Source: Candidatus Kapaibacterium sp. (GTDB lineage: Bacteria > Bacteroidota > Ignavibacteria > Palsa-1295). Taken from it: a stretch of 64,000 bases of DNA. Position 1 is the stretch's first letter. The number at the start of each line of letters is the position of its first letter. The DNA is taken from positions 43,529-107,528 of the forward strand of contig JADGPZ010000001.1 of NCBI GenBank assembly GCA_017882165.1. Direction: 5' to 3'. Under the pieces are notes generated by a model that did not search any database, had not been told where the DNA came from, and saw only the letters and a list, made by a program, of their open reading frames with translations. A program made the translations under genes and the position numbers. Below, piece by piece: positions 41,971-47,821 of the stretch.

Positions 41971-44154
41971 TTAGTACTTCCCTACTAATACTTCGATCAC
42001 GCCAGTGCCGGATCCAGAGAAATTCCCGAGTGACTTGCCGAGTGCCTGGCCGATCTGGAGTTTGCTCAGGTCAGCCTTCATCGCATGACCCGGTGTCGAA
42101 GAAGTCACCAGCAGATCGCCGGCGAAAATCGGGCCGTTCTCGGAAGTCACCTTCGTCGGAATGACACCGATGATGCCGAGCGGCACCTTTGCGGAGTGGT
42201 CTCCATCCATCATCACGTTTGTGAGGATCACTCCGGGTTTCGTCGCATAGACACCGGCAACGAGTCGCGAGTATGGCTCGGAGGACTTCTCGACAAGGCG
42301 ATCGCCAGCGCGCGAAATCACGAGCACATCACCTGCCGCGTAACTCGCTCGGTCGCCCGGCACATCGAATTCTTCCGCCACGTCGGCACCGCCGGTCTGC
42401 GTGCCGCCGTTGAAGAAGCCTTTGCCGGTCCGGTCGATCCGCGCGACGTGCGCGCCCGCCGACTCGAAGATCGCGCAGTTGTTACCATTAACGGTCGAGA
42501 TCGTCGAGCCGAGCATGTTTACGATCAATGCGTTGCACGTAGTGCCAACGGATGCTGCTTCAGCCAGAACGCCAGTACCACCCTGCCAGCCGAGACCATG
42601 CACACCATTGCCGGTGCCATCGGCCTCACCGTAGATCGCGTCTCCGTTTCCATTGGTGACACCCTCGATCGCAATCCCGCCCGTCTCCGTTCGGCCATAG
42701 ACGCCGATGCCGTTGCCCATACTGTGTCCATAAACGCCGACGCCATTTCCGTTGGCACCGTGGTTGATGCCACACACACCAGCGGCCAAGAGGGATGGAG
42801 TGGCAGAGGTCACTTCACCCTGGACTCCAACCGCATTGGCAGTAGAGCTGGTCTGCCCAAGAATCGCTGGGTTCGTGCTCGTCGTCGAGCTTGCAACCGC
42901 TTTGATGGCATTGCCCAACCCGGGATTATTGACTTCGACCGCGTTCGCGGTCGAGGCGGAGTTGGTGACCTCGAACAGGCCGGCACGAGCTGTTAGGGCA
43001 CCGGCACCAGTAGTGCCATAAATTCCCACACCACTATTAGACACAGCCCCCTCGACTCCATAACCGGAATTGGTCAATCCCGCGACCCCACGGGCCGTGG
43101 AAGAGCCTCCAAAGACGCCAGAGTTCGTCAGGACTCCGACGCCACTTCCATCGGATGTAAGGCCAAGCACACCGATGCCGGTCGCGCTCGTTGTGCTCCC
43201 GTTCACCCCCGCCATCGCCGCCGCGCTTGCCCCGCCGCTGATGGCCGCGCCAGCCCCAGAATTTGTGATGTCAAATAGTGTTGAACTCGATGACATCGTG
43301 TTCGAGTATGGCAACGAAAAGACGCTCGGCGTGACCCACGTCGCGCCACCCGACCCATTGGCCGCAAGCACCTGACCAATGGTCGCGGAACCCGATCCCA
43401 CCACGGCATTTGTCACAGCGCCGGCTGCGATCTTGGCCGTCGTGACAGCGCCAGCCGCGAGCTTCGCGTTCGTGACAGCATTATCCGCCAAACTAATCGT
43501 CGCCGTCGGTCCCGTCGGTCCGACAATGCTGATCGTCCCATCGATATTCTGGACGCCGAGGATTCCCGTTCCACTGCCGCCGGTGGAGCTGATGGTGACC
43601 GTGTATCCGTTGCTGGAAATTGTGGTCCCGCCAGAGCCGGCAAGAGTCAGGCTACCCGAGAGACCATTAATCGACCGCACGACGCCGGTTGCAAGTGGGG
43701 CAAGGGCGAGTGCGGTCCCAGCCAGGCGCGAGGAGTCCGCAACACGGCTGGTCCACGCTGTCGCGGCGGCGCCGAGTTTAGAACGTGGCGTCAACTCCGC
43801 GCCGCCTTCGATCGCGACGCCGAGGAAATAATCCGCTGCGGGACGCACGACACCGCCGACATCGCCGGCGTCAAACATCGGCAGCGGATTCGCATGGTCC
43901 GCGCCGAGTGTCGCGTTGAATATTCCATTAGTGAAGGTAACGGACTGCGTCTCCGTGTGGAGTGCGGTGCCGCCGGTTGCGGCAGCATAGATCGCAAGCG
44001 TCACGCTGTGCGGTCCCGAGACCGCAGTGCCGCTGCTCGTCACCGATCCCTGATAAGAGATGACTTGCTGTGCGTTAGATGATGATGATTGAAGTGCCTG
44101 GAGTACGAAGGCTCCAAGAACGAACACGAATGCGCGTAGCTGATGTGTTTTCAT
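41971..44154 (-). CDS. large secreted glycine-rich repeat protein (beta-helix/tail-fibre-like repeats, distinct C-terminal domain, no T9SS CTD)
   Basis: Signal peptide; dozens of G-x-G-V/I-x-G repeats (GVGVYGHSMGNGIGVYG...), conserved C-terminal ~150 aa. Confidence 0.65.
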   Translation of the reverse strand: MKTHQLRAFVFVLGAFVLQALQSSSSNAQQVISYQGSVTSSGTAVSGPHSVTLAIYAAATGGTALHTETQSVTFTNGIFNATLGADHANPLPMFDAGDVGGVVRPAADYFLGVAIEGGAELTPRSKLGAAATAWTSRVADSSRLAGTALALAPLATGVVRSINGLSGSLTLAGSGGTTISSNGYTVTISSTGGSGTGILGVQNIDGTISIVGPTGPTATISLADNAVTNAKLAAGAVTTAKIAAGAVTNAVVGSGSATIGQVLAANGSGGATWVTPSVFSLPYSNTMSSSSTLFDITNSGAGAAISGGASAAAMAGVNGSTTSATGIGVLGLTSDGSGVGVLTNSGVFGGSSTARGVAGLTNSGYGVEGAVSNSGVGIYGTTGAGALTARAGLFEVTNSASTANAVEVNNPGLGNAIKAVASSTTSTNPAILGQTSSTANAVGVQGEVTSATPSLLAAGVCGINHGANGNGVGVYGHSMGNGIGVYGRTETGGIAIEGVTNGNGDAIYGEADGTGNGVHGLGWQGGTGVLAEAASVGTTCNALIVNMLGSTISTVNGNNCAIFESAGAHVARIDRTGKGFFNGGTQTGGADVAEEFDVPGDRASYAAGDVLVISRAGDRLVEKSSEPYSRLVAGVYATKPGVILTNVMMDGDHSAKVPLGIIGVIPTKVTSENGPIFAGDLLVTSSTPGHAMKADLSKLQIGQALGKSLGNFSGSGTGVIEVLVGKY

Positions 44155-44571
44155 GGCAAACCGATTAAGTTGTTACCAAATGGTGGAGTACAAATATAGT
44201 CAATCCCGACGCGTTATGCAAGTCCCGCCTCGCGCGGCGGAGATTCCTGGGATGGCGAGGCGCTTACTCTGCGGCTGCTGTTGGAACGGCAGATCATCGA
44301 CACCTCGTTCTGGGATGACGATGAAGACGATTGCACTACTGCGGAGAGGCAAAAAAGTGCCGAAAACCGTGGATGATCGTGAGATCACCCATGATCTCAC
44401 ATCACCCACGAAAGCCCCCAAGCGCCGGAAGGCGAAGGCGGGTATACACAGTCCCGAGCTGACGGCCAAGCTGCGGAAGGCGCTGGAAGATATCGAGCAG
44501 GATCGCGTCCATACCGTCGATCCGAACAATCACCGCGACGGGTTCAAGGAGTTGCTCAAAAAGAAGAAGCC

Positions 44572-45054
44572 CTAAGATCTCGTGTGCGATCCCCGGTGTA
44601 GTTGGGGATTATCGACGTTCGCCCCCGGCACTTCGCTCGCGCGCTTCCGCTTTATCACGTCAATAATTTGACAGCACAGTTTATCCTGCTCGGGTGATAA
44701 GTCCGCCTGGTCGGCTTTGGAGAATCCCATCAGGAAGTAAATCTCGCCGTGGATGTGAGGATAGTAAACGATCCGGTATCCATCGCGCGCGCCCACATTC
44801 TGTCGTGGCAAGTCGATTTTGTGCGCGCCGCACGCATTTCGAAGATTCGCGCCACGTCTCGGCACGGAGATGAATTGCAATCGCTTTTCGAGATCGAGAA
44901 ATCGCTCGATGAGTCGCGTGTCCTCTGCTTCGTATTCTAAGAATGTTTCGAGAAACGACTCGATGTAATAGGGCCGATACGCCAGCGCATAATCGCCGGC
45001 CCGCCGCGCCTTGAACGCCGCGACCGCTTCTTCGAACCGTGCCAGGAAACCCAT
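44572..45054 (-). CDS. HigB-2/Gp49-like toxin-domain protein (RelE/ParE superfamily), apparently orphan
   Basis: Core GARDGYRIVYYPHIHGEIYFLMGFSKADQADLSPEQ resembles HigB-2 (GGSRIIYYF...FYLLTIYGKNEMSDL). Confidence 0.4.
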   Translation of the reverse strand: MGFLARFEEAVAAFKARRAGDYALAYRPYYIESFLETFLEYEAEDTRLIERFLDLEKRLQFISVPRRGANLRNACGAHKIDLPRQNVGARDGYRIVYYPHIHGEIYFLMGFSKADQADLSPEQDKLCCQIIDVIKRKRASEVPGANVDNPQLHRGSHTRS

Positions 45055-45071
45055 AGGCTACAAAGATACGG

Positions 45072-45123
45072 CGTTCTCGCTCTTGCCTGCGCGAGCGCTC
45101 CGGATATTCTTAGGATGGCGAGG
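45072..45123. repeat. ~52-bp direct repeat R1 flanking the rhuM fragment
   Basis: CGTTCTCGCTCTTGCCTGCGCGAGCGCTCCGGATATTCTTAGGATGGCGAGG versus R2 at 45576..45631. Confidence 0.7.
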
Positions 45124-45215: not shown

Positions 45216-45575
45216 ATGACACAGAACGAAACCCCCGCAGACGGCCAGCCTTCAGGGCAGCTACTTATTTACGAAGACGGCGGACTGAACATCCAGGTGC
45301 GCCTCGATGGCGACACCGTGTGGCTGACGCAGCGGCTCATCGCGGAGCTGTATCAGGTATCGCTTCCGACCATCAGCGAGCACTTGACGAATATTTATGC
45401 GGAAGGCGAGCTTTTTCCAGAGCCAACTATTCGGAATTTCCGAATAGTTCAAATCGAAGGTGGCCGCAAGGTGGCCCGTGCCCTCGATCACTATAGTCTC
45501 GATGCCGTTCTCGCCGTTGGCTACCGAGTTCGCTCCGAGCATGGGACGAAGTTTCGCCAATGGGCGACCGCACGA
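45216..45575 (+). pseudogene. truncated rhuM-like (virulence RhuM/Fic-associated family) gene, N-terminal ~120 codons only
   Basis: LLIYEDGGLNIQVRLDGDTVWLTQRLIAELYQVSLPTISEHLTNIYAEGEL matches RhuM N-terminal domain; reading frame degenerates inside repeat R2. Confidence 0.55.
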
Positions 45576-45631
45576 CGCTCTCGCTCGTTCTTGTCTGCGC
45601 GAGCGAACCGGATATTCTTGGGATGGGGAGG
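45576..45631. repeat. ~56-bp direct repeat R2
   Basis: CGCTCTCGCTCGTTCTTGTCTGCGCGAGCGAACCGGATATTCTTGGGATGGGGAGG. Confidence 0.7.
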
Positions 45632-45647
45632 TATCTCAAGAGTCAGA

Positions 45648-46397
45648 TCAGTCAGATCCTGGCTTTTGTAGAATCAATCCTGAAAGTATTGACCCGTAAA
45701 GTCCATATTCTGCAAGCATTCTCACATGCTTGCCGCCAAGATCGGAATCGATTGCGCGCGATGCTTTCCGGACCAGTTTCTCAAGCTTCATCGCTTCGCA
45801 CGCTTTGATCGACACGTCCAGAACATGCATCATCGTCACCAATGAATGAATTGGATTCGGATCTGAACCGAGTTCCTCTGAGACGTTCCTCACTAAAATT
45901 GAAAACAGAGAATTCCCTTTGAACGTGATGTCCTCTGCCGACAACAATTCCGTGCATGCTCCATATTCGTGCTCGGCGGAATTAATGTTATTGACGAATT
46001 CAAATCGAACCCCCTCCTTACGCTCTTCGAGCCAATTACCACATGCACTCTCTACGCTTGTGAAGATGATTTCTGGCATGAGAAAATCTTGAAGGCGCTG
46101 TCTGCTCATATCGCCTAACAATCCGAAGCACCTCCTCATAGTAAGGTGCATGAAAAAATAGATGTACTCATACATCAGTTCGAGTTCTCGAAGTTGTCTG
46201 GCTTTGTCGTCCGTTTCGACGATCAAGGATCTTAGCTCCCGTTGGCAAGCTTGTGCGGCTACAAAAATCGCGAGCTCAATATTTTGAAGTGGCCGCAGCT
46301 TTCGACTTTCATGTCGTCCCTTTTGACGCGCCTCATGGAACGTCCTTTTGGTCTCCCGATCTTTCGGGCTTCCGTACAATCTCGATAGTATTCCCAT
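45648..46397 (-). CDS. hypothetical all-alpha protein, co-transcribed partner of the cyclase-like gene (low GC)
   Basis: 249-aa ORF 11 bp downstream of 46408..47178 on the same strand; no TM, no recognisable domain. Confidence 0.5.
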   Translation of the reverse strand: MGILSRLYGSPKDRETKRTFHEARQKGRHESRKLRPLQNIELAIFVAAQACQRELRSLIVETDDKARQLRELELMYEYIYFFMHLTMRRCFGLLGDMSRQRLQDFLMPEIIFTSVESACGNWLEERKEGVRFEFVNNINSAEHEYGACTELLSAEDITFKGNSLFSILVRNVSEELGSDPNPIHSLVTMMHVLDVSIKACEAMKLEKLVRKASRAIDSDLGGKHVRMLAEYGLYGSILSGLILQKPGSD

Positions 46398-46407
46398 CAG
46401 TCTCCCC

Positions 46408-47178
46408 TTAGGCTTTGCCAGTAATAGTGTCTGCGACCCTCATCTGCTGACTCATTTTAGACTGCATCCACATATACTTCGCCATGATTCCTGGGTCGCG
46501 AGATTCGAGGCCTTCCCTAACGACTTCCTGAAGCGCCACTTGGTATTCACCCCATTCTCCACCCTCGAAGACGTTAGGTAGCAACTTGAAATAATTGATG
46601 TAGTGAAGGCCATCCTCATCCACAGCAAGTACGTCTTCTAACCTAAGGCCCTCCATGAGTAAAATGCGTTCTCTTGCATCCTCTAGGAGGGAATGCACAC
46701 TCGGATGAATGACAATTCGTGGATAATTTGCAGCCTTCGATTCAAGTTGATATGCCTGGATTACCGCAGGGCCAAAAAGTACCGACTCCGTGTGGCGTGC
46801 TAAGCCAAATCCAATGCCTCCACGGCACGAAAGCCCAGCAAGCCTCATTAGCTGCACCGGAATCCAATAGATCGATTGAATACTCGCAAAAACCTCTGCG
46901 GGATCATCTGCGCGAATAGAAGCGACGATACTGTCCGAAAACTGAGTTACCACGAGGCTGGGTTCACCCCTGTATCCCTTTATTCTTCTAAACAATTTTT
47001 GACTTGGCTCTAAAAGCTTCGACACCTCAATTAGCGCATCTTCTATTGCGTCAATGCGTCCCTCGTTTTGCACACCATCGTCTCCAATCGTTGCATCGAT
47101 TGCGTGCTCAAACCCAAGTATGTCGATGAAGGCTACAACGCGATTTTCGAATGTCATGATTCTGGTATAACGCATCAT
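46408..47178 (-). CDS. minimal class III nucleotidyl cyclase-like protein (adenylyl/guanylyl-cyclase fold candidate)
   Basis: Motif order VVAFIDILGFEHA (metal Asp), FSDSIVAS (second Asp), RGGIGFGLARHTESVLFGPAVIQAYQLESKA, PRIVIHPSV; start ambiguous (47178 or 47157). Confidence 0.4.
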   Translation of the reverse strand: MMRYTRIMTFENRVVAFIDILGFEHAIDATIGDDGVQNEGRIDAIEDALIEVSKLLEPSQKLFRRIKGYRGEPSLVVTQFSDSIVASIRADDPAEVFASIQSIYWIPVQLMRLAGLSCRGGIGFGLARHTESVLFGPAVIQAYQLESKAANYPRIVIHPSVHSLLEDARERILLMEGLRLEDVLAVDEDGLHYINYFKLLPNVFEGGEWGEYQVALQEVVREGLESRDPGIMAKYMWMQSKMSQQMRVADTITGKA

Positions 47179-47339
47179 TCCATAAAATGATACCCTGCTG
47201 CACCGGCAACGAAGCCACACCTCACACGCCATGCAGGCTCTTCTCGTCATTGAGTTGCGGCGTGGGTTGCTGGTGGTGTGGGGTTCGGTTGGAACCGCTC
47301 TTGCGCAATCTTAATTATCGTGTATGGAGGCACCGAGTC

Positions 47340-47555
47340 ATGCACTTAACATTTTCCGATATAGTCGAAGGCATCCGCGAACTACCGCTTGGTGACAAGA
47401 CCGAGTTGCGGGAGTTGCTGGACCACGAACTGATCGCGGCACGCCGCACGGAGATCGACGCGAGCCACGCCGAGACGATGGCGGAGTGGGAGCGCGGCGA
47501 GCTAACGCCAACGTCCGATGTCAATGAGATCATGCGCCGGTTGAATGCGGCATGA
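47340..47555 (+). CDS. type II antitoxin (addiction-module component, helical)
   Basis: 72 aa, GGAGG 10 bp upstream, 4-nt ATGA overlap with RelE-like gene. Confidence 0.5.
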   Translation: MHLTFSDIVEGIRELPLGDKTELRELLDHELIAARRTEIDASHAETMAEWERGELTPTSDVNEIMRRLNAA

Positions 47556-47821
47556 TTCAGGTCGCTGAGGGTTCGTCGTTTCGAAGAGCGTACAAACGCT
47601 TCATCAAGTCTCATCCTGATCTTGAGGAGAAGCTCCGCGAGCAGTTAGGCCGCTTCATCCAACACCCACACGATCCTCGGCTCCAGACTCATTCCCTCTC
47701 TGGCAAGCTCGATGGCCGGTGGGCCTTCAGCATCACGAAGAAGTATCGAGTCGTGTTCTATTTCGAGCGAGACGATCTGGCCTTCCTCGAAGACATTGGT
47801 ACCCACGACGACGTTTACTAA
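47552..47821 (+). CDS. RelE/StbE/YafQ-family mRNA interferase toxin
   Basis: HSLSGKLDGRWAFSITKKYRVVFYFERDDLAFLEDIGTHDDVY typical RelE C-terminal core. Confidence 0.72.
   Translation: MIQVAEGSSFRRAYKRFIKSHPDLEEKLREQLGRFIQHPHDPRLQTHSLSGKLDGRWAFSITKKYRVVFYFERDDLAFLEDIGTHDDVY

Follow-up and report, generated by a model that had tools for sequence, protein, structure and literature searches.

A gene of the PanT cyclase-fold toxin family beside an unrelated helical gene in a low-GC island of Candidatus Kapaibacterium sp.

A 64,000-nucleotide stretch of contig JADGPZ010000001.1 (GenBank assembly GCA_017882165.1, positions 43,529 to 107,528), from Candidatus Kapaibacterium sp. of the bacteroidotan lineage Ignavibacteria, carries two adjacent genes that are called A and B here; the whole stretch is referred to below as the window. 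A preliminary description, made from the sequence alone, had taken the pair for a stand-alone class III nucleotide cyclase with an unfamiliar helical partner, and had proposed either a variant of the Pycsar anti-phage systems with a new effector or an undescribed two-gene system. The analysis presented here favors a different explanation, held with moderate confidence, in which A belongs to the PanT-T47 family, encodes a cyclase-fold toxin or a protein of abortive-infection type, and lies beside B, an unrelated mobile gene encoding a helical protein. The toxin family itself is already known, and what is new in this setting is that no Panacea antitoxin accompanies the gene and that its neighbor is a different one.

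Homology of protein A to the phage toxin PanT

The relative that places protein A is gp8 of the Burkholderia prophage phi52237 (YP_293707.1), which scores 125.8 bits against the A-family profile over positions 3-238 of 269, possesses all the core motifs of the family, and is 32% identical to protein A by tblastn (E 9e-10, residues 4-197). By this homology, protein A is a member of the PanT-T47 family. Within the prophage, gp8 immediately follows a DUF4065/Panacea gene in the interval bounded by int and the portal gene Q, and proteins resembling gp8 with a similar upstream open reading frame (ORF) were seen at loci L191, L119 and L120 of the A-family collection. Accession YP_293707.1 was found in Table 1 and in the dataset of Kurata 2022 (PMC8832971), where the gp8 pair was validated as PanA-PanT(Bur. 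phage), a type II toxin-antitoxin (TA) system. The toxin belongs to cluster T47 and was described as a "putative nucleotide cyclase", with an HHpred probability of 97% to adenylate/guanylate cyclases (PMC8832971). PanT alone stops the growth of E. coli, and PanA binds and neutralizes it (PMC8832971). Transcription is inhibited most and translation second, RelA-dependent accumulation of guanosine tetraphosphate (ppGpp) is triggered, ATP is unchanged and GTP is only slightly lower, and the reaction product of PanT is not known (PMC8832971).

Since gp8 is a clear member of the A family and has already been validated as a toxin, the family is not an undescribed one. The toxicity of PanT by itself in E. 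coli argues against a design that consists of a cyclase plus a dedicated receptor. A literature search turned up no later study of the PanT cyclase toxin and nothing specific on a cyclase-like single-gene defense system or on a cyclase embedded in a restriction-modification (R-M) locus, and the T47 accessions have no entry in the NetFlax supplements. A Pfam scan found Panacea (PF13274) neither in B nor in the other neighbors of A in the window.

Fold and active site of protein A

The fold of protein A contains the palm core of a cyclase homology domain (beta-alpha-alpha-beta-beta-alpha-beta), to which the family adds a C-terminal extension of two helices carrying the invariant K234. The motifs quoted in the preliminary description (VVAFIDILGFEHA, FSDSIVAS, RGGIGFG...GPAVIQAYQLESKA and PRIVIHPSV) are all present, as read from the sequence, and the two aspartates that it had chosen as metal ligands turned out to be the near-invariant D19 and D82. 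Over 130 distinct members of the A family, D82 is kept in 129/130 and D19 in 128/130, while G120 is found in 130/130 and R119, E146 and K234 in 128/130 each, with R154 likewise conserved in a near-absolute manner. A profile-profile alignment of the family with the C1 and C2 domains of mammalian adenylyl cyclases is statistically weak (E 0.005, probability 7%), yet it is in register with the fold. In this alignment, D19 (FIDILGF) and D82 (FSDS) are matched to the pair of aspartates that bind metal in class III enzymes, RGG falls on RiGihtG, and GPAVIQAYQLES, with the family form GPxxxxAYxLES, falls on GDtVNlAsRmES.

The residues that stabilize the transition state in class III cyclases are another matter. 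At the position of the asparagine, in helix alpha4 (VN.A.R.E), 70 of the 130 members have valine, 30 isoleucine and 20 asparagine, protein A having I140. At the position of the arginine, where protein A has Q144, the six commonest residues are E, T, L, K, Q and D, with no arginine among them. Library searches were similarly unproductive. Scans of protein A with Pfam and NCBIfam gave nothing usable, Pfam being without a match at E<=10, and when 45 family members were scanned singly, PF00211 was matched by one of the 45, at E 0.072, which places the family below Pfam detection. PADLOC returned PDC-S02 for protein A, at E 0.05 only, and no PycC match; for the 45 family members it gave neither PycC nor any consistent match. 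A profile search of the PDB with the A family produced noise plus 1yk9 at E 1.8. Of the class III cyclase assignment, therefore, the fold and the two aspartates stand, and the PF00211 match and the canonical asparagine and arginine do not; the hidden Markov model (HMM) searches against PF00211 and PycC, which had been suggested as a check, both came back empty for A. Judged by its active-site complement, protein A is not a canonical cyclase; it is a divergent class III-like enzyme that is probably catalytic.

Distribution and neighborhoods of the A family

The A family is widespread, mobile and without a fixed partner. A word-index search gave 177 matches, and the proteins are ~250-290 amino acids (aa) in length. 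Spread over many phyla, at least 429 GTDB species genomes contain a relative, as do 53 IMG/VR viral contigs, 71 plasmids and 6 Burkholderia phage records, and protein A matches two PHROGs of unknown function, one at E 1.6e-29 and the other at E 1.5e-11. When neighboring ORFs were clustered over ~79 non-redundant genome loci of the family, the only recurrent neighbors were subunits of type I R-M systems (13 loci) and integrases (5), and at some of the loci the gene fills the space between hsdM and hsdS, its start and stop codons overlapping theirs. When the ORFs closest to the gene on its own strand, up to 150 nt away (77 upstream and 57 downstream), were scanned with Pfam, they formed a heterogeneous and defense-flavored list: N6_Mtase, Methylase_S, ORF6N, PglZ, HEPN_AbiV, PIN_12, AAA ATPases, kinases, HTH, integrase and SocA_Panacea, the last in 3 of the 77 upstream ORFs. 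No cyclic-nucleotide-binding, TIR, SAVED or CARF domain is listed among these upstream and downstream ORFs. In the closest homologues of A (54-55% identity; loci L007-L011), a conserved 213-aa protein is encoded 21-65 nt upstream, and no B is present.

Several of these loci merit description in their own right. At L042, L049, L015 and L030, the A-family gene sits inside hsdM-hsdS of a type I R-M operon, in some cases with 4-nt overlaps on both sides, and such two-sided overlaps leave no space for an antitoxin gene. L015 also has an intact RhuM beside the A-family gene within the operon, which parallels the rhuM fragment of the window. The 213-aa protein of L007-L011 has a single transmembrane (TM) helix at its N-terminus, with a C-terminal part that is long and helical, and Gp49/HigB-like genes lie close by; as a candidate for a conserved partner of A it was rejected, being missing from the window and from other A loci. 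At L012, L036, L091 and L020, the A-family gene adjoins a gene for a Ser/Thr protein kinase whose C-terminus has multiple TM segments, and three of these four loci also hold a PP2C-like phosphatase and an FHA/trypsin-like protein. The kinase-linked loci may place the cyclase-fold protein in a regulatory setting of a separate kind.

Gene B and its association with gene A

Protein B is predicted to be all-helical (pLDDT 90.3), and hydropathy and domain searches confirmed the earlier description of it as lacking TM, TIR and cyclic-nucleotide-binding features; the maximum 19-residue Kyte-Doolittle means, 1.37 for A and 1.18 for B, leave neither protein with a TM-like segment. Scans of B with Pfam, NCBIfam and PADLOC gave nothing usable, and the same was true of Pfam on 50 members of the B family. 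The family is much larger than was apparent from the word-index search, which gave 3 relatives, a full HMMER scan having yielded 506 cluster representatives, typically of 190-230 aa, with the conserved core YEFxYFFxHxTxR...EF..LN.AE.EY.

Three identities for B were considered and rejected. The HEPN-like hint, RQKGRH, is present as a string, but it reads RQKAEQ in a homologue of 61% identity, R-x4-6-H is not conserved, and no HEPN features were found in protein B. A membrane protein is not in keeping with the lack of a TM segment, and a phage or anti-defense protein was discarded with no PHROG match and no structural match in BFVD.

The neighborhoods of B-family genes are heterogeneous, with resolvases, transposases, an integrase and housekeeping genes, and most of the genes are solo. 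The closest homologue (61%) lies within a polysaccharide-synthesis cluster, behind two small ORFs. Upstream of B, at a distance of up to 80 nt, 15 of 33 distinct loci have a co-oriented ORF that varies from locus to locus; several of these ORFs encode small or multi-TM membrane proteins or a PD-(D/E)xK-like protein, and others look spurious or housekeeping. This pattern resembles the partner swapping of promiscuous antitoxins, which exchange partners in TA networks, toxin-first order included (PMC10440598).

As a separate observation, at L173, L174, L189 and L190 the B-family gene overlaps, by 4 to 50 nt, the gene for an upstream 200-290-aa protein with the PD-(D/E)xK-like motif GPDFLI...IGIEIGR, and at L173 and L174 a serine recombinase gene on the opposite strand overlaps the 3' end of B (L173 1473-2069). 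This arrangement may be another B-containing two-gene module on a mobile element.

Co-conservation of A and B had been set beforehand as a refutation test, and the pair failed it. No B homologue was found in any of 140 A-family loci (3,780 ORFs; BLASTP and profile HMM, E<=10), no A homologue in any of 52 B-family loci (tblastn and HMM), and no second A-B pair in any collection searched. The juxtaposition of A and B is lineage-specific, and with these counts both the Pycsar reading and that of a two-gene signaling system fail.

The island and its neighboring genes

Reading of the ORFs placed both genes on the minus strand where the preliminary description had put them (Table 1), B being downstream of A on the same strand as had been said, with a gap of 10 nt in place of the 11 bp first given. 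The low-GC island, the TA genes and the rhuM fragment that had been described around the pair were likewise recovered.

Table 1. Features of the A-B region, in coordinates of the window
Feature	Coordinates	Strand	Details
Gene A, cyclase-fold protein of the PanT-T47 toxin family	46408..47178	-	256 aa from ATG 47178
Gene B, all-helical, separate uncharacterized family	45648..46397	-	249 aa; motif YEFxYFFxHxTxR; invariant H84, Y145
A-B junction	46398..46407	-	10 nt, with GGGGAG as Shine-Dalgarno/ribosome-binding site for B
Sigma-70-like promoter match upstream of A	47314..47341	-	ATGACT-16-GATAAT; only match there
Low-GC block	45600..47250		Covers both genes; GC 0.44-0.50 vs 0.54-0.68 in the flanks
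Truncated rhuM	45216..45671	+	PF13310, E 5.5e-17, profile positions 2-51 of 252
YafQ-type TA module, divergent from A	47343..47821	+	Toxin 47552-47821, PF15738 YafQ_toxin, E 5.3e-07
Weak RelE-like protein	44572..45054	-	

The true start of gene A is ambiguous across 47157-47250. The longest ORF runs from 46408 to 47250 on the minus strand (280 aa), the NCBI call P0001 starts at 47232 (274 aa), and other possible starts are at 47157, 47175 and 47250, of which the ATG at 47157 (249 aa) best matches the family consensus N-terminus MxYExR. The ORFs of both genes are intact and keep every residue that is invariant in their respective families.

The junction suggests co-transcription of A and B and their translation from one mRNA, and no promoter-like site was found between them. 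One terminator-like match, at 46834-46816, lies inside gene A, at chance level (1 found, 1.9 expected). The promoter match upstream of A is situated between A and the YafQ-type module, and with 1 found against 2.3 expected by chance it has positional plausibility only. GC content, measured in 300-nt windows over 45600-47249, is low over A and B together, which is consistent with their joint horizontal acquisition. No tRNA gene was found within 38-52 kb, so a tRNA-linked island was rejected, and no remnants of hsdM, hsdS or hsdR were found in the window.

The rhuM fragment comprises the N-terminal ~110 residues only, matches residues 17-111 of the RhuM at L015 (tblastn), and is convergent with B, overlapping its 3' end. 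A direct repeat of ~48-55 nt (45076-45123 and 45584-45631, 88% identical, core GCGCGAGCGnnCCGGATATTCTTnGGATGG; 2 matches vs 0 expected) flanks the fragment, with a weaker copy at 44213-44260, and its second copy lies exactly where the homology to RhuM ends, just short of the 3' end of B. The repeat may be the trace of a recombination or insertion event by which rhuM was truncated. On the other side of the pair, a small antitoxin-like ORF (47187-47821 region, probable start 47343, as inferred from the sequence) without a Pfam match overlaps the YafQ-type toxin gene by 4 nt, and the two are likely a type II TA pair. Beside the island, 41971-44154 on the minus strand encodes a 727-aa protein rich in Gly, Ala, Ser and Thr, with an N-terminal signal-like segment and no Pfam match at E<=0.01.

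Weighing the explanations

If A is a cyclase-fold toxin of the PanT-T47 family, as seems moderately probable, it would bind a nucleoside triphosphate (NTP) with two metal ions held, by analogy, by D19 and D82, and would then carry out a nucleotidyl-transfer or cyclization reaction, whose product or target would lead to the shutdown of transcription first and of translation second. The gene would thereby serve mobile elements and defense islands as a module of the toxin or abortive-infection type. A dedicated cyclic-nucleotide receptor would have no part in this design, because PanT needs no partner to be toxic in E. coli and the A family has no conserved neighbor. Several points weigh against such a reading. 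At ~32% identity to PanT, toxicity may fail to carry over to A. With the canonical arginine absent and the asparagine mostly replaced, cyclase chemistry is not assured for the family. Of the 113 A-family loci with enough flanking sequence, 20 lack, on both sides, any co-oriented ORF of 70 aa or more at a distance of up to 150 nt, and if the family is constitutively toxic, its solo members would need some other form of control. The case for a defense role is one of genomic context only. Finally, the tight coupling of A and B, with its 10-nt gap, ribosome-binding site and shared low GC, is not accounted for by chance adjacency.

A second explanation is that the two genes constitute a toxin-antitoxin or toxin-immunity module of a non-Panacea, partner-swapping kind, in which A is the toxin and B, made from the same mRNA, binds and neutralizes it. 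We regard this as a serious but somewhat doubtful possibility. Besides the shared strand, the short junction with GGGGAG, the lack of a promoter-like site between the genes and the single low-GC block, it is favored by the need of PanT for an adjacent neutralizer, a role for which the window has no candidate other than B. At 10 nt, the genes are also within the spacing for type II TA systems quoted in PMC8832971 (a pair of co-oriented genes separated by at most 100 nt), and partner swapping, including the toxin-first order, is known for TA networks (PMC10440598). The upstream ORFs at 15 of the 33 B loci, several of them of typical toxin types, point in the same direction, although several others look spurious or housekeeping. 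Nevertheless, the two families do not meet at any of the 140 A or 52 B loci, the closest A homologues (55%) have the 213-aa TM protein upstream and the closest B (61%) is in a polysaccharide cluster, and solo genes make up most of the B family and are numerous in the A family. A more specific proposal, that B is the first recognized member of a Panacea-like, partner-swapping antitoxin or immunity family of ~500 clusters, neutralizing a cyclase-fold toxin here and pairing with membrane or nuclease-like toxins elsewhere, appears rather unlikely; if it held, A-B would be a toxin-antitoxin or abortive-infection combination not seen before.

Two other explanations fare worse. That A might be an inactive or purely NTP-binding cyclase-like protein, and that A and B might be unrelated and possibly decaying cargo without toxin or defense activity, is highly unlikely given that both ORFs are intact with all family-invariant residues and that a family member, PanT, has a strong phenotype; the near-absolute retention of both aspartates and of R119, E146, R154 and K234 in 130 diverse members argues for catalysis. 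The Pycsar variant or new signaling pair, in which A would make a cyclic nucleotide and B would be its new effector or receptor, is scarcely credible. Neither A nor the 45 family members examined gave a PycC match or any other usable PADLOC match, the pair is not conserved across A and B loci, and the ORFs closest to A-family genes on the same strand are listed without any cyclic-nucleotide-binding, TIR, SAVED or CARF domain. By definition, a Pycsar effector joins a cyclic-nucleotide-binding domain to TM segments or a TIR domain (PMC11224242), none of which B possesses, and the homologue PanT is toxic without a cognate effector.

Significance and comparison with known systems

No new class of cyclic-nucleotide signaling immunity follows from A and B, and the real question is the chemistry of the widespread A family and not the gene pair. 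If A is active, the cyclase-fold PanT toxins, so far three examples linked to Panacea, would become part of a very large and phylogenetically broad family, whose wider membership occupies type I R-M operons, plasmids and hotspots in prophages, for the most part with no Panacea antitoxin. This raises the questions of what nucleotide reaction a class III-like site carries out without the canonical arginine and mostly without the asparagine, and of how the stand-alone members stay silent. B, for its part, is a candidate, not yet a convincing one, for a promiscuous neutralizer family.

Pycsar differs from the present genes in that A has no PycC HMM match, B has no cyclic-nucleotide-binding domain, TM segment or TIR domain, the pair is not conserved, and the characterized homologue of A is toxic with no effector. 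Class III cyclases of PF00211 share with A the cyclase fold and the two metal-binding aspartates; A, however, is below Pfam detection, lacks the catalytic arginine, belongs to a family in which the asparagine is mostly V or I, and carries the family's two-helix extension with the invariant K234. PrrC and RloC are accessory abortive-infection or toxin genes embedded in type I R-M operons, and A-family genes are likewise found repeatedly between hsdM and hsdS, some of them beside RhuM/ORF6N, whereas the fold of A is unrelated, no anticodon-nuclease feature is present, and the window has no hsd genes and a rhuM fragment only. The remaining counterpart is PanT/PanA. The partner gene of A is downstream and is not Panacea/DUF4065, identity to A is ~32%, the toxicity seen with PanT is only predicted for A, and PanT is longer (314 aa), with an N-terminal extension and without the family Trp at position 237. 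PanT and A nevertheless have in common the motifs FIDILGF, FSD, RGG, FGP...AY.ES and PR and the lysine of the C-terminal helix, together with a cyclase-like fold, residence on a mobile element or island, and a tight link to a second gene.

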